Shown: piece after piece, positions 9,265 through 53,856 of the stretch
How the letters are laid out: each line of letters starts with the position of its first letter
Numbering within the stretch: the first letter of the stretch is position 1
Origin: an uncultured Clostridia bacterium
Lineage (GTDB): Bacteria; Bacillota; Clostridia; TANB77; CAG-465
Length of the DNA stretch: 55,683 bases
Direction: 5' to 3'
Assembly: GCA_944388545.1 (NCBI GenBank)
Contig: CALXJE010000006.1
Location: 1 to 55,683 of the forward strand
Translations under genes and position numbers: made by a program
The notes under the pieces: model-generated
Seen by the model: only the letters and a program-made list of their open reading frames with translations
Database searches by the model: none
What the model was told of the DNA's origin: nothing

Positions 9265-11221
9265 TTATAGAATATCAGCATTCAAGTCTTTAATTAAATC
9301 TCTTATCATCGCTGCCTTTTCAAACTCATAGTTTTTAGCATATTCAAACATTTCTTTTGTCAGCCTTTCTATCATTTCTTCAGTAGTTTCATTCTCTTTT
9401 GCTTCTATATCCACTTTCTCTTCTTCCGTAAATGTTACTTTAATACTATCTCTAATATTCTTCTTAATTGTTTTTGGTACAATACCATGCTCTTCATTAT
9501 ATTTTATTTGTATTTTTCTTCTTCTACTAGTTTCTTCAATAGCTTTTTCCATAGAAGGTGTAAGTTCGTCTGCATACATTATAACCTTCCCTTTGTCATT
9601 TCTTGCAGCTCTTCCTATGGTTTGAATTAAAGAACGTTCGCTTCTTAAAAAGCCCTCTTTATCTGCATCTAATATAGCAACAAGTGATACCTCAGGAATA
9701 TCTAATCCTTCTCTTAAAAGATTAATTCCAACTAAAACATCAAATGTTCCTTCTCTTAATCCCTTTATAATTTCTAGTCTTTCTAACGCTTTAATATCAG
9801 AATGCATATACCTTACCTTTATATCTTTATTTTCTAAATAACTTGTCAATTCTTCTGCCATTTTTTTAGTAAGCGTTGTTACTAATACTCTCTCTCCGTT
9901 TGCTACTGTTTCTTTTATATTATCTATTAAATCCTCTATTTGTCCATCTATAGGTTTTACTATTATTTTAGGATCTACTAATCCTGTTGGTCTAATTATC
10001 TGCTCAACTATTTGCTTACTCCTATTTTTTTCATACTCACCAGGAGTAGCACTAACATATATAATGTTCTTTGCTTTTTCTTCCCATTCTGAAAATTTAA
10101 GAGGTCTATTATCAAATGCAGATGGAAGTCTAAACCCATGCTCAACCAGAGATTCCTTTCTTGCTCTATCTCCATTATACATTGCACCTATTTGTGGAAT
10201 TGTAGCATGTGACTCATCAACTATTACTAAAAAGTCGTCTCCTAAATAATCAAATAATGTATATGGTGTACTTCCTTTTTCTCTATTACTCATGTATATT
10301 GAATAATTTTCTATTCCTTTACAAAATCCTGTCTCTTGAAGCATTTCAATATCAAAATTTACTCTCTGCTCTAATCTATATGCTTCTACTATTTTGTCTT
10401 GACTTCTTAATTCTTCTAGTCTAATTTCTAAATCTTTTTTTATTCTAGATATAGCATGATCTATATTTTCTTTTGATGTAACATAGTGAGATTTTGGATA
10501 TATTAATTCATGTTTTACTCTTGCAATTGATTTACTAGTAACAGGATGTATATATGATATTTTATCTATTTCATCTCCAAAAAATTCTATTCTCACAGCA
10601 TGATCGTCATTCCCTATTGGAAATACATCTACTATATCTCCTTTAACTCTAAATTTACCTCTTATAAATTCTACATCGTTCCTTTCATATTGCATTTCTA
10701 TTAATTTCTCTAATATTTCATCTCTACTTTTTTGCATTCCCTCTCTTATTGAAAGCGTTAAATTACTGTATTCATTAGGATCACCTAATGAATATATTGA
10801 CGATACACTAGCTATTATTATAACATCTTTTCTTTCAAATAAAGCTGCAGTGGCACTATGCCTAAGTTTATCTATCTCATCATTAATACTACTATCTTTT
10901 TCTATATAAGTATCTGTTGAAGCTATATATGCTTCTGGTTGATAGTAATCAAAATAAGAGATAAAATATTCCACTGCTGCATCTGGAAAAAACTCTTTAA
11001 ATTCACTATAAAGTTGCCCTGCAAGTGTCTTATTATGAGCCATTATAATAGTTGGTTTATTTACTTCTTTTATAACATTTGCCATAGTAAACGTTTTTCC
11101 GAGATCCTGTAACGCCTAACAATGTTTGTGCATTATACCCCTTATTTAATCCATCTACTAGCTTTTCTATAGCCTGAGGTTGATCTCCAGTCGGCTTAAA
11201 TTCTGATACTAATTTAAACAT
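9265..11221 (-). pseudogene. uvrB: Excinuclease ABC subunit B with a 1-nt insertion in the Walker A codons
   Basis: ATG 11221-11219 (RBS GGAGGA) encodes [40 protein letters not shown]. It then reads [14 protein letters not shown]-stop. Removing one base near 11101 restores [12 protein letters not shown] and joins the 606-aa track ORF (9265..11085). Total length 1957 nt = 3n+1. Confidence 0.85.
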
Positions 11222-11396
11222 TTTTCCTCCTTGCACTTTATCTCAATAAATTTTATTATCAATAATATTTATCTTCCGTTTTATGTAACACAAAATATAT
11301 TATATAGTATCATAAAAGCAAGTAATTATCAACTAACTACTTGCCTTTTAAAATTACAATTTTTCACGCATCACTTAAATTATTCTTTTTATATAA

Positions 11397-12020
11397 TTAT
11401 TTATCTTCTGAAAAAATAATAGAATCAATAATGAACTCTCCTACTGTTTGCCAATCATCCTGTAATTCTTTTGTTACATTAAAACTAACTATTCTTAATT
11501 TTTCTTTATCTGAAAAAATCATCATGTGATTGTATATATCAGTATCTATCGCATGTGAAATAAATTTAATTTCACCAATTTTATGTCCATCTTTTTCATG
11601 CACTTTAGTATCTATTATTTCTCCTACACTATCAAGCGTTTTTTCTAGTGTTGAAATATAACTATCTATATCATTGTTTGTAAAACTAATATCCGTTATA
11701 TTTGCTGCAATATTAATTGTGGTCTGATCATTAGTAAAAGCAAATGTTGGAGGATTTTGATTAGGGTATTTAATTTTTAGTGTTTCTTCGTCCATTAATT
11801 TAAAGCTTGTTGGTATTTTTAATAGAAAACTATCGTCAAATTTATTATATTCTGTTACTATCTTTTCTCCACTTTTAGTTGTTATTTCAAAAATATTCAT
11901 TTTTTCGTTTTCTTCTTTTAGTTTTTCAGTCTCTTTATTAAAGTAATATTGAACACCTAATAACACGGCCACTATTAGTATTACAACTATTGTAAATATA
12001 ATTTTTGTATTCTTTTTCAT
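11397..12020 (-). CDS. Hypothetical membrane-anchored protein
   Basis: 207 aa with an N-terminal signal-anchor (KIIFTIVVILIVAVLLGV). No recognised motif. Confidence 0.6.
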   Translation of the reverse strand: MKKNTKIIFTIVVILIVAVLLGVQYYFNKETEKLKEENEKMNIFEITTKSGEKIVTEYNKFDDSFLLKIPTSFKLMDEETLKIKYPNQNPPTFAFTNDQTTINIAANITDISFTNNDIDSYISTLEKTLDSVGEIIDTKVHEKDGHKIGEIKFISHAIDTDIYNHMMIFSDKEKLRIVSFNVTKELQDDWQTVGEFIIDSIIFSEDK

Positions 12021-37063: not shown

Positions 37064-39037
37064 TTATTGCTTTAAAGCACCTCTTCTTGCTGGAGCACAA
37101 AGTACATTAATTGTATCTTTGAGTTTATTTAATAATGCTGTTTTTATTGTAACTTGAGTTTCTTTATTCTTTTCATTTATTATAGTTGCTAAACGCTTTA
37201 AATTCTTTTTATCAAATTTAAGAAGTTTTTTATTGTCATCATATCTAGAATTTACTATACTTATAAAATTGTACATGTCATAATTGGATATTTGTGTTAA
37301 CTTATCATATAAAAGTTCCATATCATATTTTTCAAATATAGCTATGTTTTTAAAATCAGACACTACTTCTTTGTAAAAAGCATCTACATTCTCTATTAAC
37401 TTTTTAAACAGATCTGCAACTTTATTTTTCTCTATATCTTCAGAGTATTGAATTTTTGCATCTCTACATTGCTCTGCAAAAGACCTTATTGCTTCATCTA
37501 CACTATCCAAGCCTTCATAATCATCTATTCCAAGTTCTATTTGTTTAGTCAATGCAATTTTAAATCCAAGCAAAAATCTATTAGAAAGTTCTTCAACAGA
37601 AATACCATCTATAAGTCTTAAATCATGTAGTTGTTTATATACAGCAAAAAGTCTAGTATACTCTGTACTAGGTACGTTACCTTCTTTAACATTATCTAAT
37701 ACCTTTGTAGAAGTTATCTCAAAATCTATATCTGACATCTTCCAGTAACTACCATCTATAATTTTTAAATATAAAGGATCATTTTTTCTTTCCTTCTTAT
37801 TTATAGCTTTCTTCATATCTTCTTTAAATTGTTTTTCATCAAACATTCTAGTTCTTACATACATTTCAACAAATTTAAAAAATCTATAATCTTCTTTAGA
37901 ATTTAAAAAATATCTTGTATCAAATTCTCTTAAATAATATTGACTAGATCCATTAAGTATGTTAGAAGTAAATATTATTGATTTATATTCTTCATTAGAC
38001 TTTACACTACTAAATTTAGCTTTTACAACATTACCTACTTTTATTTCAAAAGATATGGCTATCGTAAATATTAATACAATCCTTAAAAGTTCATTTGAGA
38101 CATCAGGATATTCTCTTGTTATATTATCATAAACTCTTTCAAAATCATTCAATGCATGTTTTAAAACTCTTAAATTTCTAGTATTAGTTTTATTAAACGT
38201 ACTAATTATTGTTCCTATTTCCATCTTTAAGAATTTTTCAAAAGGTTTATTATAATCATACCTCATAATCATACCACTTAATATATATGAATATTCTGGC
38301 ACATATTCAAAACATTCTCCTACTAGTTTTTCTTTTATTCTTTCATAAGCATTAGCCCTATCAAAAATACTTTCTACCTTTTCTTCTAATTTATTTGCAA
38401 CCGGTTCTTCTAATGTATCTACTAATTCCGATTTTTTGCCCTTTCCTTCTTTTTCTAACATTAGTGTTGCTATTAATGTTTTTATTTCTATATTATTATT
38501 TTTAAACTTAATGGCTAATTCTTTTTCATTACATATAAGTATGGTTTTTATCCCATCATGCTCTACAAAGTTATTTATATATCCTAATATATCTATAATA
38601 TCTATATTAGCTCTCTCTAAATCATCAAAACATAATACTTTATCATCTGTAGTAAACATTTTTGCAAAGTCTATTCTACCACCATCTACTTGCATGGTAC
38701 CATATAAATTGGCAATATCAACACCTGTTTTTACATACTCTGGTATTACATTTCCATCTGTATTCTCTGCAAATTTTTTAAGAGTCTTTGTTATAACAGG
38801 ATTGGTCTCTAAAAATATCTTTTTACTTATTTCTTCTATGCTATTTATTCCATATAAAGAAATATATATTGTTTTATATGTTTTTCCTGATTTATTTTTT
38901 ATTACTTCTATTCTTTTTCTTAATTTATTATTCCAAAAATGTGTCTTACCACTTCCCCACTCTCCATTAATCATAACAGCGTAATCTGTATACGGTTTTC
39001 TTATGTACTCCTCTATACTTTCAATTAATTCTTTCAT
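37064..39037 (-). CDS. KAP-family P-loop NTPase
   Basis: 657 aa. N-terminal YAVMINGEWGSGKTHFWNN P-loop and Walker B-like VLCFDDLER, typical of the KAP family. Confidence 0.8.
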   Translation of the reverse strand: MKELIESIEEYIRKPYTDYAVMINGEWGSGKTHFWNNKLRKRIEVIKNKSGKTYKTIYISLYGINSIEEISKKIFLETNPVITKTLKKFAENTDGNVIPEYVKTGVDIANLYGTMQVDGGRIDFAKMFTTDDKVLCFDDLERANIDIIDILGYINNFVEHDGIKTILICNEKELAIKFKNNNIEIKTLIATLMLEKEGKGKKSELVDTLEEPVANKLEEKVESIFDRANAYERIKEKLVGECFEYVPEYSYILSGMIMRYDYNKPFEKFLKMEIGTIISTFNKTNTRNLRVLKHALNDFERVYDNITREYPDVSNELLRIVLIFTIAISFEIKVGNVVKAKFSSVKSNEEYKSIIFTSNILNGSSQYYLREFDTRYFLNSKEDYRFFKFVEMYVRTRMFDEKQFKEDMKKAINKKERKNDPLYLKIIDGSYWKMSDIDFEITSTKVLDNVKEGNVPSTEYTRLFAVYKQLHDLRLIDGISVEELSNRFLLGFKIALTKQIELGIDDYEGLDSVDEAIRSFAEQCRDAKIQYSEDIEKNKVADLFKKLIENVDAFYKEVVSDFKNIAIFEKYDMELLYDKLTQISNYDMYNFISIVNSRYDDNKKLLKFDKKNLKRLATIINEKNKETQVTIKTALLNKLKDTINVLCAPARRGALKQ

Positions 39038-39121
39038 AAACTACACCTCTTTTTTTAGCATTATATACCATTAATTATAATTATTCAAGTAAATGTATGC
39101 CGTAAACTATTTTAAATATGT

Positions 39122-39152
39122 AAAAAAAGATATATAAAATTTTTTATATATC
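39122..39152 (-). terminator. Rho-independent terminator of recD2
   Basis: GATATATAAAA / TTTTATATATC stem, followed on the minus strand by a T7 run. Confidence 0.6.
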
Positions 39153-39170
39153 CTTAATTTTTATGTTTTA

Positions 39171-41357
39171 TTATGTTTCCTCTATGAGTTTATGTTTTAG
39201 GCCTGTTCTACGAACATTTTCATGAGTATTACTTATCATATAATTTAATACTCTTTTACTTCCTACAAATATAAGCATATTCTTTGCCCTTGTCATTGCT
39301 GTATATATTAAATTTCGATTAAACAATTTTTCATAACATACGTAAAGTGGTATTATAACTACCTTAAATTCACTTCCCTGACTTTTATGCACTGTTATAG
39401 CATAAGCATGTTCAAGTTCATCTAACATGTCAAAATCGTATTTTATTTTTTTTCCGTCATCAAATTTAACTACAAGTTCTTTTTGTATATTATCAATACT
39501 ATTAACTATTCCAATATCACCATTATATACTCCTTTATATGTTACACCATCTACGTCATACTGTATATCATAATTATTTTTTATTTGCATTACTTTATCG
39601 CCTTGTCTAAAAATTCTTTCTCCTACTTTTTTCTCAGGTTTAAAACTATCTTCTTTATTTAGTATCTTTTGAATTTCTCTATTTAGACTATATGTTCCAA
39701 GTTCTGTTTTTTTAATGGGAGTAATGACTTGTAAATCTTCTACTATATTATAATTAGCAAAATTTTCTAATCTACCGTCTAAAAGCGATAGAACTTCTTT
39801 TTTTGTTTCCTCTATAGAATTAGTTTCAATAAAATACATATCTGTATTTTTATTACTAAATTCTATATTATCTCCTGATTTTACTCTATGAGCGTTTATA
39901 ACTATATCACTTTCTTGACTCTGCCTATATATTTCATTTAATTCTACCACATTAACGACTTTTGATTCTATTATATCTTTTAGAACACTACCTGGGCCTA
40001 CTGATGGAAGCTGATATGAATCACCTACTAATATGAGATTGGTACTATCTTTTAGAGCTTTTACTAAATTATTCATTAATATTGTATCTATCATAGATGC
40101 TTCATCCACAATTACAACATTATGGGGAAGTACTTCTGGCATAAAGTCTATAATTGAATCTATATCATTATCATTTATTTTTGTTATTTCTAGTAATCTA
40201 TGTAAAGTTTTAGCCTGCTTTCCTGTCGTTTCTGTTATTCTCTTAGCTGCTCTACCCGTTGGAGCACAAAGTACATAGGATTTCTTTTCATTTTCAAGTA
40301 TATCTATTATACATTTTATAATAGTTGTTTTTCCTGTTCCTGGTCCACCAGTTATAACAGAAATATTACTATTTAAGCAAGTATTTATAGCTTGTCTTTG
40401 TGTTTTAGACAATACTATATTTTCAAGCTTACTCACTATATCTATTTTATTATCATATGACTTTTTTGAAACTTTATCTTTATTTCTAGAAGCTATATAC
40501 CTTGCTATATTAGTCTCTGCTACCGATAAACTTTTTCTATATACATACTTTGCATTTTCTCGTATATCTATTACTACTTTGTCTGACATAACCAAATTAA
40601 CAAGTACGTTTTCTATACTTTCCAATCCTACTTCTAAAAATTTACAAGCATATTCTATTAATATATTTTTTTCTATGCATGTGTGCCCTGCTTGCATTAT
40701 TTCATTTAAACAAAACAATATTCCAGCCTTTAATCTTGACTCATTAGAATTATCTATATTTAACTTTTTCCCAAGTTCATCTACAACCTTAAAACTAATA
40801 TTATTTATAAAGTCAAGTAATGCGTATGGATTTTCTTTTATTATATTAATAGCATTTATACCAAGAGTATCATATATTTTATTTGAAATAGTGATAGAAA
40901 CTCCATATCTTGCTAAAAAACTAGTTAAATTCCATCTCTCCCATTCTTCATTTATATATTCACTTATAGCAAGTGCTTTTTCTTCATTTATTCCTTTTAC
41001 TTTTACAAGATCATATGGTCTATTTTTTATTACATCAAATACATCATCTCCAAAAAACGTTACTATTTTTTCAGCAGTTTTAATACCAACTCCTTTTATG
41101 TCTGATTTTGCTATATATTCTATTAATGTATCTGTATCTTCAGGCATAACTTTAGATATATATTTAAATGCCAACTGTTCACCATAATTTTTGTGATAAG
41201 TTATATCTCCTTCTACTTCTACAGTATCTCCTTCTTCTATGTTACAAGTTTCACCTACTGCAGTTATATATCCATCTTCTGAATCAAGTACAAAAACTGT
41301 ATATCCATTTTTTTCGTTTTTGTATATTATAGTTGATACTTTTCCTACTGCTTTCAT
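39171..41357 (-). CDS. recD2: ATP-dependent RecD2-type SF1B DNA helicase
   Basis: 728 aa. ITGGPGTGKTT (motif I), VVIVDEASM (motif II), and AITVHKSQGSEF and TAMTRAK (motifs V/VI). Confidence 0.9.
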   Translation of the reverse strand: MKAVGKVSTIIYKNEKNGYTVFVLDSEDGYITAVGETCNIEEGDTVEVEGDITYHKNYGEQLAFKYISKVMPEDTDTLIEYIAKSDIKGVGIKTAEKIVTFFGDDVFDVIKNRPYDLVKVKGINEEKALAISEYINEEWERWNLTSFLARYGVSITISNKIYDTLGINAINIIKENPYALLDFINNISFKVVDELGKKLNIDNSNESRLKAGILFCLNEIMQAGHTCIEKNILIEYACKFLEVGLESIENVLVNLVMSDKVVIDIRENAKYVYRKSLSVAETNIARYIASRNKDKVSKKSYDNKIDIVSKLENIVLSKTQRQAINTCLNSNISVITGGPGTGKTTIIKCIIDILENEKKSYVLCAPTGRAAKRITETTGKQAKTLHRLLEITKINDNDIDSIIDFMPEVLPHNVVIVDEASMIDTILMNNLVKALKDSTNLILVGDSYQLPSVGPGSVLKDIIESKVVNVVELNEIYRQSQESDIVINAHRVKSGDNIEFSNKNTDMYFIETNSIEETKKEVLSLLDGRLENFANYNIVEDLQVITPIKKTELGTYSLNREIQKILNKEDSFKPEKKVGERIFRQGDKVMQIKNNYDIQYDVDGVTYKGVYNGDIGIVNSIDNIQKELVVKFDDGKKIKYDFDMLDELEHAYAITVHKSQGSEFKVVIIPLYVCYEKLFNRNLIYTAMTRAKNMLIFVGSKRVLNYMISNTHENVRRTGLKHKLIEET

Positions 41358-43258: not shown

Positions 43259-43419
43259 ATTGCTATAAATCTAATGTAAAAGTTTCATAAATAAAAGAAA
43301 CAGCTATAGCACAAGCAAAGCAATTTAAATACATCTAATGTTATAGTTTTACAAAAAGTAACAAAGATATTCCACTTAGACCAGTTAATATTTAAATACA
43401 TCTAATGTTATAGTTTCAC
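43259..43419 (-). CRISPR. Leader-distal segment of the type I-B array: 3 repeats (one perfect, one with 1 mismatch, one 23/30 relic) and 2 spacers
   Basis: Perfect repeat at 43390-43419. The repeat at 43323-43352 differs at one position (43350, t for c). The copy at 43259-43288 is degenerate. Spacers are 37 nt and 34 nt, so in-register spacing is maintained. Confidence 0.8.
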
Positions 43420-43439
43420 TATCGCTAATCTCTTGCATA

Positions 43440-43465
43440 TTAAAAGACACCTTTTGAGGTGTCTT
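43440..43465 (-). terminator. Rho-independent terminator after the acidic small ORF
   Basis: AAGACACC / GGTGTCTT 8-bp stem (43444-43451 / 43458-43465) with a 6-nt loop. TTTTAAT follows on the minus strand. Confidence 0.6.
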
Positions 43466-43474
43466 AATTAACTA

Positions 43475-43696
43475 TTATAAATTATTTTCTATTTCTACTA
43501 TTATATCTAATATCTTTTCGTATTCTTCTGCAAGCGGAGTAAAATCTTGTTTTTTATCAAGATTATCCATCATAGTATCATATACAGTATCTTCAAGCTC
43601 TTCTAATGTATTTTCATCGTAATTTTTATTGACATCAACATTAATTTTCTCTAACAATTCAATTTGCCTTTCATCAAATTTTTTATTAATTTTCAT
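43475..43696 (-). CDS. Small highly acidic hypothetical protein (candidate immunity-type protein)
   Basis: 73 aa. By my count 21 D/E versus 9 K/R. GAAGGAA RBS 8-9 nt upstream of the ATG. The ATG lies 4 nt after the TGA of the upstream toxin-like reading frame. Confidence 0.6.
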   Translation of the reverse strand: MKINKKFDERQIELLEKINVDVNKNYDENTLEELEDTVYDTMMDNLDKKQDFTPLAEEYEKILDIIVEIENNL

Positions 43697-43700
43697 AACT

Positions 43701-44483
43701 TCATTCCTTCTTTGTCTTTTTAGGAAAAACTGTTATAAGTTTTCCTGTTTCAGTATTAATTTCTATTGTACAATTTTTTCCTTTTATTTGTTGGCTTTTA
43801 TCTTTTCTAATTTTACCATATTTTATAGGATTTTTCAATGTATCTTGTACATCTTCAAAACTTACATCTCTAGCATATGTTCTCGATATTATATGTTCTC
43901 CAATCTCTGTTATTTCTATACCGTTTACTCTACTTCCTACAATATCACTATTATTGTATTTATTAGCAATTTTAGTTACATTTGCTACTTGTGTACTAAT
44001 ATTCTTGTCTTGTTTTCCTACATATAATCTTGTATTGTCCGTTTTTAATGAAGTTTGCTTTATAAAGTCATCTAATTCATTTTAATGTGTTTTATATATT
44101 AAAGAACGTCTGCTAAATTCAGTCTTAGTACTCTCTATTAGTTTATTATCTTTTGTATTAGATTTTAGTATTCCCTGCAAGCCAGCTAGTTCTTTTTTAT
44201 CTGCTCTAATTCTTCTTTCCATTTTTCTTTGTATTTGTGTTGCTTCATATTTACTTATTTTTTGTCCATTATATGTAACTTTTTCGTTTTTCCATGCATT
44301 TAACTGTTCTTGTGTATACGTTCTAGCACTACCTTTATAATAAGAATACCAATCATGTCTACAGTTCACTCCTTTAAATCCAGTTGCTTCTCCATATCCT
44401 ATATCATCTAAACTTAAATATCCTTTTCGTTCACTTCTACTAACAATCTTTCCTTGCCAACTTGCATGACTAGGTCTAGCTCC
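43701..44483 (-). pseudogene. 3' fragment of a phage head-morphogenesis gene (MuF / SPP1 gp7 family) with a C-terminal toxin-like extension; in-frame TAA at 44082-44084
   Basis: ARPSHASWQGKIVS...GFKGVNCRHDWYSYY...VTYNGQKISKYEATQIQRKMERRIR are MuF hallmarks. After TAA the same frame continues NELDDFIKQTSLKTD...EHIISRTYARDVSFEDVQDTLKNP...GKLITVFP to TGA at 43701-43703. The 5' end is truncated at the CRISPR repeat. Confidence 0.75.
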
Positions 44484-45295
44484 ATTTAAATACATCTAAT
44501 GTTATAGTTTCACCTACTGTTTCCTCTGTATTCTCTATATTTACAAATATTTAAATACATCTAATGTTATAGTTTCACCACAAGGCTGAAAGACGTACAC
44601 CAAACAAAAGACGGATTTAAATACATCTAATGTTATAGTTTCACGAAAAAGGCGACACAATAGATATAAGAGTAAGTAGATTTAAATACATCTAATGTTA
44701 TAGTTTCACCTGCTTCTGATTTAAAAGAAAATGTATCAAGTATGATATTTAAATACATCTAATGTTATAGTTTCACCAAAATATAATAAAAGTACAGGAG
44801 AGCTTTATTATAATTTAAATACATCTAATGTTATAGTTTCACAATGTTAAAGTAACAGCAAATTCACCAGGTGTATTATTTAAATACATCTAATGTTATA
44901 GTTTCACATGGATTTATATCTATCAATACTATTTGCTAAAATATTTAAATACATCTAATGTTATAGTTTCACCTGATTTTAGAATTAAGGAACGTGTTCC
45001 TGAAACATTTAAATACATCTAATGTTATAGTTTCACAGAAAAAGTTATGAAACTTATAATACTGAACAAGAATTTAAATACATCTAATGTTATAGTTTCA
45101 CAACTCAAATGTAGTAGCTAGGGACAACTCAAGTGTATTTAAATACATCTAATGTTATAGTTTCACGAAAATAAGTCAATGAATGAAATAACTCATGAAG
45201 AATTTAAATACATCTAATGTTATAGTTTCACGCTTTACCCATTTTGTTTGCTAACTCTTCTAAAAATTTAAATACATCTAATGTTATAGTTTCAC
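44484..45295 (-). CRISPR. Type I-B CRISPR array, 13 identical 30-nt repeats and 12 spacers
   Basis: The repeat is ATTTAAATACATCTAATGTTATAGTTTCAC on the plus strand, i.e. GTGAAACTATAACATTAGATGTATTTAAAT on the cas strand. Spacers are 34-37 nt. Repeat starts: 44484, 44549, 44615, 44680, 44747, 44813, 44878, 44943, 45007, 45072, 45137, 45202, 45266. Confidence 0.97.
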
Positions 45296-45436
45296 CCAAG
45301 ATAAATAAAACATTTTTAAATATGCATAATTGATTATATTGCTGTAACTATGCATATTATAATAATTTTTTTCCAGCAAATCAATAAATTACTAATTTGT
45401 CTAAAATACTAACGTTTAAGAGACTACCTGGAAAAA
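45296..45436 (-). promoter_or_regulatory. CRISPR leader with candidate promoter (TTGATT-17-TATAAT at 45356-45384)
   Basis: AT-rich 141-bp segment between the cas2 stop and the first repeat. The minus strand reads TTGATT - 17 nt - TATAAT about 55 nt upstream of the first repeat. Confidence 0.6.
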
Positions 45437-45727
45437 TTATAAAAATATTTCTTCTGTATTTTTCTTATATACTCCAATATTAGTTTCTCCTATACTCTTA
45501 AAGTTAATTATTTTTATTATAGATACAAAGTCTTCTTTTTCATTTATAACACTTTTTATTTCATTTTCCAACCTAATAATTTCTGATGTTGTTATAGCTC
45601 CTCTGAAAACAGAATTTTGCCAATGATTAAGATATTTTTTACATTTTTTAAACACTTTATTTACTCTCTTTTCATGAACATCATAAAATAGAAAAACATA
45701 ATTATAGTTTTTAATATCTTTTTTCAT
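45437..45727 (-). CDS. cas2: CRISPR-associated endoribonuclease Cas2
   Basis: 96 aa. YVFLFYDVHEKRVNKVFK...WQNSVFRG pattern. 4-nt overlap with cas1. Confidence 0.92.
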   Translation of the reverse strand: MKKDIKNYNYVFLFYDVHEKRVNKVFKKCKKYLNHWQNSVFRGAITTSEIIRLENEIKSVINEKEDFVSIIKIINFKSIGETNIGVYKKNTEEIFL

Positions 45728-46725
45728 TGCTTATCCTCCATGCAAAAAGGTTTAAACTCTTTACCTTCCAATATTGTTTTAATCAATTTATATCCATCAA
45801 GTTTTATTGCTTGTTTATAACTTATCATTCTATTAAGTTTTTCATGTTTAAAAGTTGTATTAATTCTATTTTCTAAAGCATTTATAAATATTTTCTTTCC
45901 TTCATCATTTAATAAGGAATAATTATATTTTTTGTCAAAATGTTTTTCTACTTTAATTTTATTATTGTTTACAAGTTCAAATATTGTTTTAAAAACTATT
46001 ATAGGCTTAAATACTTCACTTAAATCAAGAGATAATGAAAATCTGGCTTCACTTGGTTCATGCAAAAAAGAAATAGTTTGATCAAGATGAGTCATATATA
46101 TTTCTGTTATGGTTTTAGTATAAAGTAATGTATTTCCAAAGGATATCATTGCATTCATTGGATTATCTGGAGGTCTCTTTACTCTATTATTTAATATAAA
46201 ATCTTTTGGCAAAAAAACTTTAAAACTATTATAAAATTCAGCCCATATTTTCCCTTCTATAGATAATATTTGTTTTATATTATCTACTTTGTTTAACAAT
46301 TTAATTACATCCTTTTTATAAAAATCCAATATATCTTTCAAATTTTCTTTCCCATGTCTATAATAATGATATAAGACACTATGAATATTAAGAGCTATTC
46401 CATTTACTATCGCCTTAGCTATTTCTAGTCTATTTTTCGTAAATAAATTAACTTGCTCTACTACAAGACTACCGCTGATCAATGATTTTTTAGGATAGAA
46501 AGTTCCAACATAATTACCAAAATAATTAAAATAATGTATTAAAATACCACTTTTCGCTATAATTTCTAAAAATTTTGTAGACATTGTAATTTCATTAAAA
46601 CAATATATTTCTTTTATTTTTTCTATAGGAATATAAAAGTTTCCTTTTTCATTTTTATATTTTATTGAAAAGTCACTTCTACTAAGATCTCCTCTTGAAA
46701 AAATATATTTACTTTCTTCTTTCAA
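45724..46725 (-). CDS. cas1: CRISPR-associated endonuclease Cas1
   Basis: 333 aa, located between cas4 and cas2. Typical Cas1 size and C-terminal acidic catalytic region. Confidence 0.9.
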   Translation of the reverse strand: MKEESKYIFSRGDLSRSDFSIKYKNEKGNFYIPIEKIKEIYCFNEITMSTKFLEIIAKSGILIHYFNYFGNYVGTFYPKKSLISGSLVVEQVNLFTKNRLEIAKAIVNGIALNIHSVLYHYYRHGKENLKDILDFYKKDVIKLLNKVDNIKQILSIEGKIWAEFYNSFKVFLPKDFILNNRVKRPPDNPMNAMISFGNTLLYTKTITEIYMTHLDQTISFLHEPSEARFSLSLDLSEVFKPIIVFKTIFELVNNNKIKVEKHFDKKYNYSLLNDEGKKIFINALENRINTTFKHEKLNRMISYKQAIKLDGYKLIKTILEGKEFKPFCMEDKQ

Positions 46726-46734
46726 AATTTCCTC

Positions 46735-47226
46735 CTATATATAACAATATGTATAGTATGCACACCTTTTACATCCTTTAAGTTTATATGTTTCTGGAAC
46801 TTTATTATTATTTATTAGCTTATCTATATCATTTAAAATTTGCTCTAATTCTTTTTCTGTATTTTCATTTAATTCTATTATTTCTATTTTTTGATTAGTA
46901 TTTTTTTCATTACATATAAGTTTCCCTTTTTTATATATTCCCTTATCTTTCAATATTTTTAAATAAAATAATAATTGCATCCTTGCTGCTTCTATATCTG
47001 CATCACTCTTTTTATATTCTAAAACAAAATCTTTAGAAATTCTATCTATAAATGCATTCTCTAATTTTACTTCACTATCTTTATCATCCATGCTTTTAAT
47101 TTCATGTAATATTTTACCAATTCTAACATCTTCTGAATTATCTTCTAAATTAATTTTCTTAGAAAACAAATAACACTGTCTTTTACAATGTATATAATAA
47201 TTTATCATTACTCCGGTTATTTTCAT
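46735..47226 (-). CDS. cas4: CRISPR-associated exonuclease Cas4
   Basis: 163 aa. N-terminal Cys (YIHCKRQCYL) plus a C-terminal CKRCAYYTYC cluster. The ATGA overlap with the cas3 stop shows TGA is read as stop here. Confidence 0.9.
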   Translation of the reverse strand: MKITGVMINYYIHCKRQCYLFSKKINLEDNSEDVRIGKILHEIKSMDDKDSEVKLENAFIDRISKDFVLEYKKSDADIEAARMQLLFYLKILKDKGIYKKGKLICNEKNTNQKIEIIELNENTEKELEQILNDIDKLINNNKVPETYKLKGCKRCAYYTYCYI

Positions 47227-49652
47227 AAAAATAAACCTCCATTATAATCACTGTTAAATTTTCTCCTATCTAACTTCCCATTTTGAACATAATTACCACC
47301 ATTTTCAATATAGTAAATACCATATATCTGAGGAATACTATCTAAAATATCATTATTCCTAATATTAAAATTAAACGAAAATAAGTTCATATGTTTTCTT
47401 AGTTTAGATAACTTGATTTTAAATTTAGCATAACTTAATGTTCTATCCTGACAAACTTTTATATATTCTTCTAACACCTCTTTACCATCATATATATTAT
47501 TATAATCTTGAAATTTAAAGCAAAAGAATATCTGTATTGTATTTGTATCTATTAATTTAACATTTTCATATATTTTACTATAATTTAAATATTTACAATA
47601 TTCCATGAATTTATTATTGTTATATTTAGTAATATACTTATTTGAAATATTTTTACTTAATTTAAATACTCTTTCATAGTAGCTATAAAAATCTTTAGTC
47701 TCTAAATACTTTCTATTTTCTTTATTTAAAATTGTATAATTAAGTCTTACATCTCCCTTATATACATTTTGGGGATCGACTATTTTAAAAAAGTATACTT
47801 TTGCATATGCTCCTTTTTTAAATGAACGATTTATTCTTCCTTGAAATTGTTCTTCACTTTCAATAGTAGATACATTTTTAAATCCTACATCCATATCTAT
47901 ATCTGTTCCTGCTTCTATTGTTTGAGTACAAACAAGTAATACATCATTTAATTTATTTACTTTTTTTAGAACATTTTTTCTTATAAATGCATTATCATCA
48001 CCTGTTATTTCAAATATATTATTGAAATAATTGCTTGCTAAATCGAAGAATTCTCTTGCGCTTTCTTTAGTTATAAATTCAACAAGTATTTTTTTACCCT
48101 TGTATTCCTTTACTTTATTTAACAAATCACTATATTTAAAATTCTCTATATCAAGTAATGTAAAATCAGGTTTTGTTCTATTTTTAAACTCTTCCTTGCT
48201 ATAATAAATAGAACTATCTTGTAGCAAATTACAATATCCTGATACTGATACGTCAAGTAATCTATCTAATTTAGGTAACGTTGCTGACATTATAACAAAC
48301 TTAACATTTAATAACTTTGCATATTTATCTAGTAGTTTAATAATGTTTATCCACTTAGAGCTCGTATATGCTTGAATTTCATCTATTATAATTATACTGT
48401 TAATATAATCATATAAATTTACGTTACTTTCCTTATTGCATCCAAAAAGGCTTTCAAAAAGATTTACATGCGATGTTATTTTGATTTCATAATCTCTCAA
48501 TAAAAATTTCATATAACTTAATTCATAATCAGTATCATTTTTATCTAGAATCATATTGTTTATTGGAATCTCATTTAAAGAATTAATAACTACGAAATCT
48601 TTATCCTCTTTAAAATCTCTTTTAAACACTTCTGCTGTTTGTTCTACTAATGTATTAAATGGAAATATATAATTTATACTTCGTATATCTTTAATATTTT
48701 TATATAAAATTCTAGCTATATTAATAGATACATTAGTTTTTCCAGAACCTGTTGGTGCTTCTAAATAAAATATGTTTTTGTTTAAATTATCTATTAAATT
48801 ATTCTCTACTTCTAAAAACATATCACTTCTTGATTTATTTATACCATCTAGTTCTTGTAGTCCTTTTTCATATTCTCTAATAATTTTATTTATTTTATTA
48901 TTTTGATAACTATTAAATAGTTCTTCATTTCTATACTCTCTTAACTCTATTTTTTCTCCTGTCATATATTCTGTTGTTGATAAATAATCACAAGTTACTA
49001 ATAATGAATATAATAATTTTGTTAAAATATATAAAGAAATACTATCCACTTTGTCTTCTGCATTTAAACAATAATCTAAAACACCCTCGTATTTAGTCTT
49101 ATCTATCTTTAAAGAATATATCTTATTCATTCCTATAATTTCGTATTTATCTAACATTGTTATAAAAAATTCTTTTATACTGTCTAATTTTGAGTGATGT
49201 CTTGAAATTATATAAGCAAACCTTGATACTACATATATATTAAGTATTTTCTCTTTTTCAGAAAGTTTACTATTTAGAATTTTATCCAGACAAATATCAA
49301 AATATATCATAGCTGATATTATTGAATGTTCACTATCTGTTCCATTTTTCTCTCCCTCTTCTAAGTTGTTCATTTTATATGCCTGAAATGAAGGATTTAT
49401 TTTTCCAATATCATGTGAATAGATTGCAAAAGTAAAAAAATCATATGTTTCATTAATACTCAATTCTGATTGTTCAAAGTAAACTTCCTTAATTATATTT
49501 TTAACAACTTTTTCTAAATTGTATATTTTATCTAATTTTATATAATACTCTTCTGTAAGCAGTAAATGATCTAACAATAATTCTTTATTGCTTCCTTTAG
49601 TATGAGCGTAATACTTCTTATTTTTTAATATTTCATTTATTCTATTTTTCAA
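47223..49652 (-). CDS. cas3: CRISPR-associated helicase/nuclease Cas3 (HD + DEAH helicase)
   Basis: 809 aa. HD motif (IYSHDIGKINPSFQ), LEAPTGSGKT Walker A and IIIDEIQAY DExx box. Confidence 0.93.
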   Translation of the reverse strand: MKNRINEILKNKKYYAHTKGSNKELLLDHLLLTEEYYIKLDKIYNLEKVVKNIIKEVYFEQSELSINETYDFFTFAIYSHDIGKINPSFQAYKMNNLEEGEKNGTDSEHSIISAMIYFDICLDKILNSKLSEKEKILNIYVVSRFAYIISRHHSKLDSIKEFFITMLDKYEIIGMNKIYSLKIDKTKYEGVLDYCLNAEDKVDSISLYILTKLLYSLLVTCDYLSTTEYMTGEKIELREYRNEELFNSYQNNKINKIIREYEKGLQELDGINKSRSDMFLEVENNLIDNLNKNIFYLEAPTGSGKTNVSINIARILYKNIKDIRSINYIFPFNTLVEQTAEVFKRDFKEDKDFVVINSLNEIPINNMILDKNDTDYELSYMKFLLRDYEIKITSHVNLFESLFGCNKESNVNLYDYINSIIIIDEIQAYTSSKWINIIKLLDKYAKLLNVKFVIMSATLPKLDRLLDVSVSGYCNLLQDSSIYYSKEEFKNRTKPDFTLLDIENFKYSDLLNKVKEYKGKKILVEFITKESAREFFDLASNYFNNIFEITGDDNAFIRKNVLKKVNKLNDVLLVCTQTIEAGTDIDMDVGFKNVSTIESEEQFQGRINRSFKKGAYAKVYFFKIVDPQNVYKGDVRLNYTILNKENRKYLETKDFYSYYERVFKLSKNISNKYITKYNNNKFMEYCKYLNYSKIYENVKLIDTNTIQIFFCFKFQDYNNIYDGKEVLEEYIKVCQDRTLSYAKFKIKLSKLRKHMNLFSFNFNIRNNDILDSIPQIYGIYYIENGGNYVQNGKLDRRKFNSDYNGGLFL

Positions 49653-49662
49653 TTAATTCCTC

Positions 49663-50427
49663 CTAAAAGAAGAATATATTTTTATTATCAACGTGATATA
49701 TCTCATCCTGGTCTGAAATTTCTATATTTTTATTTGTAAAGCAAAATTTTTTAAAATCAATATAACCTATCTTTTCATTAAGTCTCATTGGCATTATTTC
49801 TGCATAAATAAACTCTTTTTCATTATCATTTGAATTTAATATATCTAAATAATTTTTATCTATAACCTTTGATTTTATATCATCTAAATAAATTGAATCT
49901 ATCTTATCAGTAACTTTACTAATTTTAGATACATTATTATATATTTTTACATCAGATATTGAGCCAAAATGTTCATTCTTACCTATATACGGTATATATT
50001 CACATTTTGAATTTAACATATATTCTTTTATTTTTTCATATTTATCTGATGAATTTGATAGAACATATATGTTCCATTTTGGGTTTTCAAGAAGTTCCTC
50101 ATTAACTATAAGATTATTCCCTTCTTCTTTAGAAGCATATCCTACTGAATTATTGAATTTTTGCCATTTTTTATTAAATATTCCTTTATTTGTAATTGGC
50201 TCTATACCAATCTTTATATCTTTTAAGTTTTGATAAAATTCAGGTAATTCATATTCTTTATTCATTAATAAATTGTAATTATATCCATTCTCACCAATTA
50301 TACTCCCTAAAATACCAAGTATTGCTATTTTGTGAATATTATTATATGTAAAATATCTATCATTACTCTCTGGTTTTCGTATAATTGCAAGTCTAGATTC
50401 TAATTTAAATTTTAACACTTCACTCAT
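49663..50427 (-). CDS. cas5: Type I-B Cas5
   Basis: 254 aa. N-terminal FKLESRLAIIRKPESN...ILGILGSIIG pattern of the Cas5 RAMP. Position between cas7 and cas3. Confidence 0.85.
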   Translation of the reverse strand: MSEVLKFKLESRLAIIRKPESNDRYFTYNNIHKIAILGILGSIIGENGYNYNLLMNKEYELPEFYQNLKDIKIGIEPITNKGIFNKKWQKFNNSVGYASKEEGNNLIVNEELLENPKWNIYVLSNSSDKYEKIKEYMLNSKCEYIPYIGKNEHFGSISDVKIYNNVSKISKVTDKIDSIYLDDIKSKVIDKNYLDILNSNDNEKEFIYAEIMPMRLNEKIGYIDFKKFCFTNKNIEISDQDEIYHVDNKNIFFF

Positions 50428-50437
50428 AAGGTCACCT

Positions 50438-51379
50438 CTAGTACAATTCTTTTAATATGCAATTTTCATTTGCCCCTTTTATATTTAAAGTATATGTATT
50501 ATAATATATTTCAACTTCTTCTATTTCGGATCTATGCTTTTCTACAATATCTATTAATTCAGAAATATCAATTATATCTTTATCATTTTCTACTTTTTGA
50601 AATTTTATGTATTGATCTAAATTAGCTAAATATAACTTACTACATTCTTTACATTTTACAAACGCTGCAAATTCATTTTCACATCCTAATTTACTATTTG
50701 TATTATATGCAGTTGCTGCCTTTAAGCAACCTTCTTTAAATTTATTATATGCATCTTCCGTATAGCCCTCAAAATCAAGGCCTAATTTTTCATCTTTATA
50801 TATATCATAATTAGAAGGATTTACGGAAAATGGATAATAATAGTGAGCTTCGTCTGATACTATTTTAGTTCCAAGCGAACTAGTCATAGCACTTTCTTTA
50901 TTAGAATTTCTAAATGGAGACAATATATCAATTATCTCAATACTTGTTCCTTTATATTTGTTAAAACCTTGTCCTACTTGCACAGCACCTGTTATGGAAA
51001 TATTACATTTACTTTCAGCAAATGTTGCTCCAAAATTCATAACATCTATAGCTTTAAATAAATTACCTATTACTTTATTTTGATCTTTTCCTACACTTTC
51101 TCCAAATAAAAATTCATATCTTTCACTTAAATCTCTAGGTATTATATTTTTTTCACCTTTTTCTTCTTTTTTCTTATATGATCTAACGTACATCACTTTG
51201 TTTTTAGAATCTAACTCCCACATCTTTTTAATAGGAAATTTAAATGCTTTATCGCTTCCATATATTTCATCATTACTAGTCGTTCTTGGTCTTCCTGAAA
51301 AATCTGCATTAAAATTTGACATTATACTTTTTATTCCTACTACTCCATAAACTCTGTTATTAAATAAATTTTCACCCAT
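50438..51379 (-). CDS. cas7: Type I-B Cas7 (Csh2-type backbone subunit)
   Basis: 313 aa. YGVVGIKSIMSNFNADFSGRPR is a typical Cas7/Csh2 N-terminus. Confidence 0.88.
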   Translation of the reverse strand: MGENLFNNRVYGVVGIKSIMSNFNADFSGRPRTTSNDEIYGSDKAFKFPIKKMWELDSKNKVMYVRSYKKKEEKGEKNIIPRDLSERYEFLFGESVGKDQNKVIGNLFKAIDVMNFGATFAESKCNISITGAVQVGQGFNKYKGTSIEIIDILSPFRNSNKESAMTSSLGTKIVSDEAHYYYPFSVNPSNYDIYKDEKLGLDFEGYTEDAYNKFKEGCLKAATAYNTNSKLGCENEFAAFVKCKECSKLYLANLDQYIKFQKVENDKDIIDISELIDIVEKHRSEIEEVEIYYNTYTLNIKGANENCILKELY

Positions 51380-51381
51380 TT

Positions 51382-53157
51382 TTATTCCTCCTCTTTTACA
51401 TCTTTTATAGATGTATAAAATATATTATCTGTTAAAACACCTGCAATAAGCATCTGCATAGCTTTTGTTTTATCAAACTCTGGTTCTAATGTCATCAACT
51501 GACTAAATACATTGTTAAATCTTTCATAATTAATACCTAAATTATAATTATATTTATTATATATATAAGTTAGTTCTTTCTTTATCTTTTCTACACTGTT
51601 TGCAGAAAACAAAGCATTTAACTTATCTTGGGTAATTCTTGATGCATTACTTAAACTTAAAAGATATTGTGCTACTTGTCCAGCAACAAAGTAATATAAA
51701 TCATCTGTATTAATTTTACCTTTTTCTATAATAACTTCTTTTGCTTTTTCAGTCACTTCACTTCTTCTCATATTAATACTCCCTTCCTTCCCTTTTAAAT
51801 ACTCATCTAATGCTAAATATAAATTCATAACTTTAATTACATTAAATGGAATTTTTCCTGTTTCTTTATTGTTTAAAAAGTCATAATATGAATTAATAAC
51901 AATTTCTATTCCTATATTATCAAGGTTCTGTATAAATAATAGTTTATTGTTTCTATTAAAATAATTAAAAAAGACCTTTCCATATCTTTTTATTATTTGC
52001 TTTTTCCACATTGTAAGTATTTTAGCTTCTTCTATTATTTTAAAATCAAAATAGCCTCTTTCTAAATATCCTGAAAACCAAATATTACTAACAAATTTTT
52101 CCATTAATTCCAACTTGTTTGTTATTATGTTATTCTCTTTAATCTCTATATTTGGCATAATATAGTTATTACATACAAAACTATCCTTTAATACATTAGA
52201 ATAATTAGGTACTATTTCAAAATGTTCTATTTTTGCATTTCCATTATCATTAATAGCTCTTAATATATATACATTTTTATTTTCTATTAATTCCGGATTT
52301 ATTTTTAATTCCTTCTCTATAGGAATTTTAACATAATTTTTTGTTGCTACATTTTTAATAAGCCAAATATATAAATTCCTAGTTTGTCTTATTTCTTCTT
52401 CAGACACCAAACTTCCTACTTTATATGATGTAGATTTCAATTCCAAATACTTCTTTTTAGAATTTAATCCAAAATTATAATTATTGGCTCCATATAATTT
52501 ATTATTTAGTACTACGTTATAATCAACTGTATTAAAAATTTTTTCACTTAAATAATAATTAGATTCTTTATCGTATTCCTCTATAGCATAATCTAAAAAT
52601 ATTTTTATATATGTATCTTTTTTTAGCTCTTTCCTTTTTACATCTTCTATAATAGCATTAAAAGCTCTTTTCATCTTTTCTTTTATAATTATATACTCTT
52701 CTAAAACCTCTTCATATTCCTTTTCTAAATAATTTGATTTTAATTTAGCTAGTGATTCATAATATTTATCTATACATTTATCCCAACGATCTAAAGAGTT
52801 TTCTTCTTTGCTATCTTTTAATAGTCCTTGAACAAATCTAGCCTTAAAAAATAATGAGTATATATTATTACTTACTACTTTTTTCCCCATCACAGATTTG
52901 TTACTATTTTCATTTTCCTTAAAACTTGTATCTACTGATTTATTATTATCTAAATATTTACTATAATAATCTCTAATCGCAAAATAATCATATAACTCAT
53001 TTGTCATATTTTGATGCTCTTTATTTATACTTAAATTTATATATTTTCCCGACTTATCTACTAAATAATATTCTCCATTTTCTAAAGTATAAATATCCTT
53101 AATAAAATCACTATTTTGAAATATCTCTCCAAAGCTATTTAATAGATCTTTTATCAT
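51382..53157 (-). CDS. cas8b: Type I-B large subunit Cas8b
   Basis: 591 aa, poorly conserved. Assigned from size and position between cas6 and cas7 in the canonical I-B operon order. Confidence 0.8.
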   Translation of the reverse strand: MIKDLLNSFGEIFQNSDFIKDIYTLENGEYYLVDKSGKYINLSINKEHQNMTNELYDYFAIRDYYSKYLDNNKSVDTSFKENENSNKSVMGKKVVSNNIYSLFFKARFVQGLLKDSKEENSLDRWDKCIDKYYESLAKLKSNYLEKEYEEVLEEYIIIKEKMKRAFNAIIEDVKRKELKKDTYIKIFLDYAIEEYDKESNYYLSEKIFNTVDYNVVLNNKLYGANNYNFGLNSKKKYLELKSTSYKVGSLVSEEEIRQTRNLYIWLIKNVATKNYVKIPIEKELKINPELIENKNVYILRAINDNGNAKIEHFEIVPNYSNVLKDSFVCNNYIMPNIEIKENNIITNKLELMEKFVSNIWFSGYLERGYFDFKIIEEAKILTMWKKQIIKRYGKVFFNYFNRNNKLLFIQNLDNIGIEIVINSYYDFLNNKETGKIPFNVIKVMNLYLALDEYLKGKEGSINMRRSEVTEKAKEVIIEKGKINTDDLYYFVAGQVAQYLLSLSNASRITQDKLNALFSANSVEKIKKELTYIYNKYNYNLGINYERFNNVFSQLMTLEPEFDKTKAMQMLIAGVLTDNIFYTSIKDVKEEE

Positions 53158-53166
53158 ATATACCTC

Positions 53167-53856
53167 CTATTTTAGCATTGCATATCCTCCACCCAACGAA
53201 GAATTTTTTTCTCCAATTCCTGTAGCCATTAATATATATGCTAATTTTTGACTTATTTCATCTTTTTTTACTTTAATCTCGTACTTATAGCCAAGTAAAT
53301 ATTTACCTTTATATTTAATTTTTATAGCTTTATTTGTTTTACATTCTATACTATCTATAAACTTGCAATGAATTTCCTCATTATATATTTGTTTATATTT
53401 TTTCTCCGCATTCGCTATTATTCTATCTTTAACAAAGTCCAGATCATGTCCTTTATTATATCCTGTATCTGCTGTAATAATTACAGGAGTTAAACTTGTC
53501 ATTATATTAAATGGTTTATAGTTATATGTTGCTATATTTGTCATTATAACCTTAAAATCATAGTTTCCTTGTGATATATAATTTTTGATTTTCATGGCAA
53601 ATTTTATATCTATACATCTTATATCAAAAGTATATATTCTCCCTACTTTATATATTCCGTCCTTTTCTATAGGGTAAAAACTAGAAAAAACATAATTTTT
53701 ATACTTATTCTCCTTATGAAACATCTTTAATTCTTCGTCCTTTTCCATAGTAAAAAATATAAGTTTAGATATTTTTTCAAAGCTTTCTTCATACTTTATA
53801 TCACTACTTACTGGCATAAGTACTATTTTTAAATCATAATACTGCACTATATTCAC
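53167..53856 (-). CDS. cas6: CRISPR repeat endoribonuclease Cas6
   Basis: 229 aa. First gene of the operon, with the C-terminal Gly-rich loop GIGEKNSSLGGGYA typical of Cas6. Confidence 0.85.
   Translation of the reverse strand: MNIVQYYDLKIVLMPVSSDIKYEESFEKISKLIFFTMEKDEELKMFHKENKYKNYVFSSFYPIEKDGIYKVGRIYTFDIRCIDIKFAMKIKNYISQGNYDFKVIMTNIATYNYKPFNIMTSLTPVIITADTGYNKGHDLDFVKDRIIANAEKKYKQIYNEEIHCKFIDSIECKTNKAIKIKYKGKYLLGYKYEIKVKKDEISQKLAYILMATGIGEKNSSLGGGYAMLK

Follow-up and report, generated by a model that had tools for sequence, protein, structure and literature searches.

Recombination between CRISPR spacers and the protospacers of phages has been described experimentally (Varble et al. 2019, as outlined in the review PMC8616872). 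In a second relevant system, the MuF polymorphic toxins of temperate phages, the MuF2 domain (PF06152) is joined to variable C-terminal toxins and followed by a small immunity open reading frame (ORF) (Jamet et al. 2017, PMC5576092). Here, we analyzed a 55,683-nt stretch of DNA from an uncultured Clostridia bacterium (GenBank assembly GCA_944388545.1, contig CALXJE010000006.1), referred to below as the window, in which one spacer slot of a type I-B CRISPR array is occupied by 1,064 bp of phage DNA. The insert carries the end of a putative MuF-toxin gene, and both of its ends appear to be placed by a protospacer adjacent motif (PAM). A preliminary description of the locus had pointed to this phage segment, and its author was not aware of a comparable case; our full-text searches likewise found no description of phage inserts that reach kilobase size and lie between repeats in a spacer slot.

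The 30-nt repeat GTGAAACTATAACATTAGATGTATTTAAAT, read on the minus strand, is present in 13 mismatch-free copies across 44484-45295. Further copies were found at 43390-43419 (no mismatches), 43323-43352 (one mismatch), and 43259-43288 (a relic with 23/30 identical positions). In total, the array has 16 repeat copies and 15 spacer slots. Fourteen of the inter-repeat intervals measure 34-37 nt, with 35 nt as the commonest length, and one, slot 13 at 43420-44483, measures 1,064 bp. In the adjoining cas operon, Pfam profiles identified Cas6, Cas7, Cas3, Cas4, Cas1, and Cas2, and Cas5b scored 174 bits against the type I-B profile TIGR02592 of NCBIfam (cut-off 97). The 591-aa (amino acid) protein at the cas8b position had no family match in Pfam or NCBIfam. 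Based on the placement of the cas operon and the minus-strand reading, the leader was assigned to 45296-45436 and the degenerate repeat at 43259 to the trailer end. A promoter-like site was found in the leader by a consensus scan (45384->45356, TTGATT-17-TATAAT, 10/12); promoter-like sites in this region are no commoner than in shuffled sequence. The locus is a single type I-B array, read on the minus strand, with the leader adjoining cas2. The repeat scan and the cas profiles thus agree with the preliminary description as to repeat positions, registers, the 1,064-bp interval, and the presence of one type I-B array. It had also considered that the distal repeats might be an independent array with its own leader, separated by ordinary chromosome. 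This is not the case, since no leader-like sequence was found ahead of the distal repeats and the stretch there is phage DNA to its last base.

The insert is read by one frame from the first base past the proximal repeat to a stop codon at 43701 (in the direction of the array), with a single TAA interruption. The first 105 residues of this frame match PF06152 at profile positions 229-341 of 366 (E = 7e-30), and the MuF2 part matches phrog_581, a minor head protein family (E = 2e-33). Because the match spans only these positions, about 228 N-terminal positions of PF06152 are missing. Truncation in mid-gene on the leader-proximal side, as proposed earlier, is therefore borne out: the domain is cut at position 229, and the initial MYLN of the ORF 44082-44495 is encoded within the repeat. 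The C-terminal ~125 residues of the MuF-toxin frame form a DUF4258-like region, for which the profile match in the window is below threshold (E = 0.002-0.005); the family was matched in 11/15 homologues, with a best E-value of 9e-5. An AlphaFold model of this candidate toxin domain was obtained with a pLDDT (predicted local distance difference test) score of 78. Its best PDB match was the CdiA-CT toxin of E. coli NC101 (E = 6.5e-3, template modelling (TM) scores 0.41/0.55), followed by colicin E5 and RelE, all with weak E-values, and a sequence search of the toxin profile against PDB gave nothing meaningful.

Two nucleotides past the toxin stop codon begins a 73-aa ORF that is conserved across all related phages. 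It is identical in the related contigs L002 and L003 and identical at 66/73 positions in the phage contig L087, which comes from the same sample as the window. With its length and position, it corresponds to the small downstream ORF (<150 aa) by which candidate MuF immunity genes are recognized (PMC5576092). The hairpin at 43439..43472 has a predicted folding energy of -13.1 kcal/mol (z = -3.65) and was not flagged by a strict terminator scan. In sequence terms, the insert is the 3' end of a MuF-toxin gene together with a putative immunity gene and a terminator-like hairpin. An insertion sequence (IS) had been excluded by the preliminary description, and we concur: there is no transposase among the ORFs of the insert (terminal inverted repeats had no separate search), and the whole interval is phage DNA in phage order.

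The source family was found among siphovirus-like contigs from IMG/VR and ENA metagenomes, in which the gene order is terminase, portal, MuF, MuF-toxin, 73-aa ORF, scaffold, and capsid. The MuF2 minor capsid match and the collinearity with this family confirm the phage structural content suggested earlier. The nucleotide identity of the insert is 86.8% to L086-L088, 84.6% to L042/L043, and 82.6% to L005/L006. Homology extends from the first base past the proximal repeat up to the base that adjoins the distal repeat, with 95% identity to L087 in the final 75 nt. Neither the insert nor the 14 spacers of ordinary length gave a DNA match among INPHARED phages, and the insert proteins share at most 40% identity with those of this collection. 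Among the related phages, one has a gene for a Holliday-junction resolvase. The MuF gene is called as two ORFs (181 + 300 aa or 250 + 173 aa) instead of one of ~450 aa in most of the related contigs (L042, L086, L089, L091), which may reflect a frameshift, a programmed split, or an assembly error. The 172-173-aa proteins beginning with 'MERQIR...' were considered as further array-embedded fragments and rejected, as they are ordinary phage genes from split MuF ORFs.

To define the PAM, a set of 636 spacers, taken from the window and from I-B arrays related to it in uncultured gut Clostridia (found via Cas1, 70-77% identical), was matched to phage loci. Twelve spacers matched a phage at >=80%, and the 5' flank of the best hit was TCA in five cases and CCA in two (7/12 against a background of 1.5% + 1.1%, P = 6e-9); the related arrays supply most of these spacers, and the window contributes spacer 6. 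With hits of >=75% counted, there are 14 spacers, of which at least 10, window spacer 6 among them, have TCA or CCA in at least one homologous phage. Judged by these flanks, the PAM of this I-B family is 5'-TCA/CCA. Spacer 6 matches the phage loci at 24-29/35 positions (28-29/35 in the three closest), and the 5' flank of its protospacer is a Ser codon, which is TCA in 6/16 phages. The AGT found beside spacer 6 and the insert start was examined as a separate PAM and rejected, because this Ser codon alternates with TCA or TCT among phages.

At the distal end, the position of the PAM could be read in the insert itself. On the array-sense strand, TCA is found only at insert positions 15, 433, 852, and 1027, and the last of these is the exact PAM position for a 35-nt terminal spacer. 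Neither TCA nor CCA is present at distal offsets 33, 34, or 36-38. At the proximal end, the corresponding PAM would lie in the donor. The phage codon just outside this end encodes Ser or Gly: L021/L022 have TCA here, and the closest phages, L086-L088, have TCT. Both ends of the window insert therefore match the ends of putative PAM-defined, spacer-sized units, which we call X (leader-proximal) and Y (distal), with the proximal PAM taken from relatives. In the same-sample phage, the internal Y site reads TAA, not TCA. The TAA and TCT variants at the Y and X sites would fit PAM escape, a suggestion that is statistically weak. As a separate observation, the coding strand of the captured segment is poor in TCA (4 observed against ~12 expected from base composition), which could result from PAM avoidance by the phage. 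The coordinates of all features are collected in Table 1.

Table 1. Features of the CRISPR locus and of the phage insert (window coordinates).
Feature	Coordinates	Strand	Basis or remark
Type I-B cas operon, cas6-cas8b-cas7-cas5b-cas3-cas4-cas1-cas2	45437..53856	-	Pfam and NCBIfam profile matches
Array leader	45296..45436	-	Between cas2 and first repeat; leader and first repeat also in L045
Leader-proximal array part, 13 perfect repeats and 12 spacers of 34-37 nt	44484..45295	-	Repeat scan
Spacer 6, targets the same phage family	44908..44942	-	Protospacer ~1.4 kb upstream of insert start, same strand
Insert, contiguous phage segment in spacer slot 13	43420..44483	-	Collinear with phages end to end
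Putative spacer X, first 35 nt of insert	44449..44483	-	PAM outside the insert, in donor
C-terminal third of MuF2 (Phage_min_cap2) minor capsid domain, cut by repeat	44169..44483	-	PF06152, phrog_581
In-frame TAA breaking the MuF-toxin frame	44082..44084	-	Translation; CAA in L002 and all phages
Linker and C-terminal candidate toxin domain (DUF4258-like, ribonuclease-toxin-like fold)	43701..44081	-	Profile and model
Intact 73-aa ORF in immunity-gene position, GAAGGA ribosome-binding site upstream	43475..43696	-	ORF call
TCA, PAM of putative spacer Y, kept inside insert	43455..43457	-	35 nt before distal end
Terminator-like hairpin, 9-bp core stem then UUUU	43439..43472	-	Folding; conserved in phages
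Putative spacer Y, last 35 nt of insert	43420..43454	-	33/35 identical to L086-L088; homology stops at repeat
Trailer end, 3 repeats (0, 1, 7 mismatches) and 2 spacers (43353-43389, 43289-43322)	43259..43419	-	Repeat scan

A second insert was found in another gut Clostridia species (metagenome-assembled genome BRZ_KF bin28), in an array with the repeat ATTGAACTTTAACATAAGATGTATTTAAAT. It is a 1,071-bp interval between perfect repeats (L062:10082-11152) and comes from the same region of the phage family as the window insert, in the opposite orientation, with shifted end points and in another repeat variant. It extends from the conserved 'QIQRKMERQIR' of MuF to ~150 nt inside the scaffold gene. 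Its toxin domain is not that of the window insert, and neither is its 76-aa immunity-like ORF (phrog_34144). The L062 insert is independent of the window insert. A TCA is present exactly 35 nt before its distal end, and TCA stands just outside the proximal end in 9/10 related phages (13/14 in a wider search). Of the 25 hits listed for the distal protospacer, which are 23 phage loci and two copies of the window's contig, 13 have TCA as the PAM. The probability that both inserts carry TCA at exactly -35 by chance is ~2e-4, or ~4e-3 if lengths of 34-37 nt are allowed.

The junction ORF of the L062-type insert was found on 13 contigs from several studies (also L163-L170). In L062, L163, and L165, the insert is identical at 1071/1071 positions and the trailer-side spacers are common to all three, while none of the leader-side spacers (24 in L062 and 27 in L163/L165) is common to both lineages covered in full. 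L075 adds 29 more unrelated leader-side spacers; its contig holds only the first 202 nt of the insert (L075:7287-7488), with the same junction and 202/202 identity. Because no leader-side spacers are shared, the insert was the newest element of the ancestral array at the lineage split, and it has persisted since. The trailer spacers beside it are variably deleted. The cas operons of L075 and L062 are 82.6% identical and the last 40 nt of their leaders are identical, which indicates that array and leader segments were exchanged between the two lineages and that the CRISPR locus is mosaic. The L075 array also contains three nearby spacers against the same phage family.

No further clean kilobase insert was found in 70 metagenome arrays of the repeat family. 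Near the trailer of L052 (a contig present also as L111), two consecutive slots measure 525 bp (10780-11304) and 192 bp (11335-11526). The 525-bp piece contains the C-terminal part of a phrog_5057 phage protein and a small ORF, and fails the distal rule. The 192-bp piece is a 76%-identical homologue of the end of the 525-bp piece and fits both TCA rules, with weaker evidence. Segments of ~590 bp and ~690 bp lie between trailer-end repeat relics in L065:13257-14566 and L120:2269-3563; these were rejected as captures since they look like old array remnants, and the L065 segment matches the ordinary trailer flank of L055. Other long intervals were also rejected. The 3,312-bp interval of L078 contains an aspartyl-tRNA synthetase gene, and the identical 250-251-bp intervals of L116:6388-6637 and L160, lying between a degenerate repeat and a new repeat run, look like an internal leader of tandem arrays. 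The long interval of L080 is a run of N, and those of L154 and L158 contain degenerate repeats.

The explanation we favor, which we give about an even chance of being correct, is a recombination event between phage DNA and two spacers already resident in the array on the same strand, X and Y. The ancestral array would have held two spacers against the phage, X leader-proximal and Y distal, with protospacers ~1 kb apart on the same strand. Phage DNA would have recombined with the array via the two 35-bp homologies, by a double crossover, by gap repair, or by integration at one of the spacers and a later deletion at the second, perhaps aided by a phage recombination system. The interval between the protospacers would have replaced the repeat or repeats separating X and Y. 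The product would be repeat-X-(phage DNA)-Y-repeat, from which neither X nor Y CRISPR RNA would be processed.

Among the three scenarios of the preliminary description (giant-spacer capture, recombination with a phage-borne array, and spacer-guided recombination with an invading phage), the last is the best supported because both insert ends coincide with PAM-defined protospacer ends. Recombination with two resident spacers is also favored because spacer-protospacer recombination is an established process that needs no new enzymology (a Holliday-junction resolvase is encoded by a related phage), because related arrays as well as the window (spacer 6) hold spacers against the phage family, and because L002 shows sequence exchange with phages at the locus. 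L002 is a mosaic. In the toxin-coding part (43850-44170, compared with L002:1-320), it is ~16% diverged from the window and has CAA in place of TAA, and from ~43850 on it no longer differs from the window: the next 430 bp with the immunity gene are identical, and so are the distal array and the aldolase gene. This pattern indicates exchange with phages after or during insertion.

Several points weigh against the recombination of two resident spacers. No pre-insertion allele of the form repeat-X-repeat-Y-repeat was found among the strains retrieved, so that X and Y as separate earlier spacers are inferred rather than observed. Crossing over twice within homologies of 35 bp should be a rare event, and among ~100 related arrays there are two clean cases and one 192-bp candidate. 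None of the collections searched contains the exact donor of the window insert (best 86.8% nucleotide identity), so that the proximal PAM comes from relatives only, and in 18 further phage loci the codon outside the proximal end is AGT, GGA, GGT, or ATA. Moreover, a single aberrant adaptation event with two PAM-positioned complexes predicts the same architecture equally well.

Such an aberrant adaptation is the strongest competing explanation, although we consider it rather unlikely. One phage fragment would be bound by Cas1-Cas2-Cas4 at two TCA sites 1 kb apart and integrated as a giant spacer made of two prespacers. The trimmed non-PAM end of Y would be joined on the leader side and the Cas4-processed PAM end of X on the spacer side, with the DNA between X and Y left uncut and with no need for pre-existing spacers. 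The PAM geometry seen at both ends of the two inserts would also follow from it, and the system encodes Cas4, Cas1, and Cas2. The L062-type insert, as the newest element of the ancestral array, resembles a freshly acquired spacer, but X and Y would give the same pattern if they had been the latest two spacers to be acquired. A literature search found no report of kilobase spacers, and no adaptation complex is known to hold ends 1 kb apart, given the ruler mechanisms of Cas1-Cas2. The giant-spacer capture put forward in the preliminary description is thus tenable only as two prespacer complexes on one fragment, and not in its simple form.

Formation of the cassette elsewhere and its import by repeat-to-repeat homologous recombination, either from a phage or plasmid array or from a transduced array of another strain, is improbable. 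In its favor, the cas genes of L075 and L062 are diverged, and yet the 40-nt leader tail and the 202 insert nucleotides available are identical. On the other hand, the exact window repeat was not found in IMG/VR (exact 27-mer search), GTDB species representatives, or Joint Genome Institute (JGI) metagenomes, as a consequence of which there is no same-repeat sister array for comparison. No repeat-like sequence (<=8 mismatches) was found at either insert boundary in 37 related phage loci, either. The donor search thus identified the phage family without boundary repeats, and the earlier scenario of a phage-borne array is disfavored. Import would also merely relocate the origin of the cassette and leave its PAM-defined ends unexplained.

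Still less probable is a coincidence of two unrelated arrays, or of an array split by a prophage, in which the 1 kb is a decayed prophage remnant that ends at the repeats by chance or by illegitimate deletion. Such remnants are common, and the toxin frame of the window is interrupted by a stop codon. However, both ends lie exactly at repeat borders, the rule of a PAM plus 35 nt is obeyed at both ends in two independent cases, no leader precedes the distal repeats, and 43420-44483 contains no integrase, attachment site, or other prophage gene.

An assembly chimera of the host array and a co-occurring phage can be practically dismissed: although the window is a metagenome contig with ~7.7x coverage and its sample also contains a related phage, the distal junction is found in five independent assemblies (the window, L002, L003, L048, and L049, from at least four samples and two studies), the 137-aa ORF spanning the proximal junction is on three contigs, the L062-type case was assembled in 13 contigs from several studies, and the insert differs by 13% from the same-sample phage, reads of which therefore could not have built it.

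The comparison of related strains, called for in the preliminary description, thus places the same distal junction in four further contigs; the trailer end 43259..43419 is identical in L002, L047, L048, and L049. Two independent assemblies, L048:1 and L049:1 (window ~43476), break at one base just past the stop codon of the immunity gene. A break of this kind would be expected from a branch in the assembly graph if a co-occurring phage shares the immunity gene.

The window cassette lies in the sense orientation, and a leader-driven transcript would cross 12 spacers, the toxin frame, the intact immunity ORF, and the hairpin, which probably lowers the expression of spacers 14 and 15. Translation of the 137-aa ORF is unlikely, since Cas6 processing, with the usual 8-nt 5' handle, would remove its repeat-borne ATG. 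Both inserts contain a complete candidate toxin domain and an intact immunity-like ORF, and the L062 insert is unchanged. On these grounds, it is plausible that selection for immunity to a virion-borne MuF toxin retained the immunity gene. More speculatively, the recombinant would have been kept as its immunity protein would neutralize the virion-borne MuF toxin of this phage family, which is beyond the reach of CRISPR interference against DNA. Three facts weaken the case for selection: in the window a stop codon breaks the toxin frame, the L062 cassette is antisense to its array with no promoter identified, and most L062-type contigs were retrieved via the insert's own ORF, which is an ascertainment bias. 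In a broader form, arrays would act as gene-capture sites at which spacer pairs guide the insertion of phage DNA, the MuF immunity gene is selected and expressed from the leader as a protein-level defense, and the cassette spreads from lineage to lineage with the trailer end; we regard this proposal as tentative and rather unlikely.

A few kilobases beyond the array trailer (window 37064-41357, minus strand), genes were found for a KAP-family NTPase of 657 aa and a RecD2/PIF1-like helicase of 728 aa. They may be defense-related neighbors.

If recombination with two resident spacers is correct, the locus would provide natural genomic evidence, beyond the laboratory, that spacers serve as recombination handles. 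Arrays would then take up whole phage genes and not just 35-nt memories, and immune memory would guide gene flow from phage to host along a new route. It would also link CRISPR immunity with phage polymorphic toxins, and immunity to a protein-delivered toxin could explain why such a recombinant would sweep. Loci of this kind are dropped or split by array finders and spacer catalogues. Their signature, which can be sought in all public arrays, is an over-long 'spacer' that ends, on the distal side, one spacer length past a PAM and, on the proximal side, directly at a PAM of the source.

Compared with canonical acquisition by Cas1-Cas2-Cas4, the insert has the same intact flanking repeats and a distal end one spacer length past a PAM. 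The donor-side PAM at the proximal end is seen in nearly all phages related to the L062 insert (9/10, or 13/14), whereas for the window it is TCA in two related loci and TCT in the three closest. In contrast to a canonical spacer of 34-37 nt, the insert is 1,064 bp long and retains an internal PAM, an ORF, and a hairpin. Interruptions of arrays by IS elements or transposons also split an array by a long insertion, but the insert has no transposase, follows the phage gene order, and is bordered by complete repeats rather than by an interrupted repeat or spacer. In the orphan immunity genes and acquired interbacterial defense islands of polymorphic toxin systems, a host likewise retains an immunity gene, alone or together with a toxin remnant, in the absence of the delivery part of the toxin. 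Here, the capture would be guided by CRISPR spacers, and the gene stands in a spacer slot.

With the known MuF modules (PMC5576092), the insert shares the MuF2 domain, the C-terminal toxin-like extension, and the small downstream ORF, and the donor gene follows portal and terminase. It differs from them in that it holds only the C-terminal third of the MuF domain, resides in a bacterial CRISPR array, and has an interrupted toxin frame in the window. In spacer-protospacer recombination of the Varble type, as far as it is summarized in the review, short spacer homology is likewise the substrate for recombination between array and phage, and the hybrid junctions fall exactly at spacer borders (PMC8616872). 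The outcome outlined there is phage particles transducing CRISPR loci, in staphylococci with type II and type III systems. The present case is a stable chromosomal type I-B array in natural gut Clostridia that keeps 1 kb of phage DNA and a gene. According to the full-text searches, a stable, gene-carrying, PAM-delimited product of this kind was not previously described, and the nearest known process is spacer-protospacer recombination.

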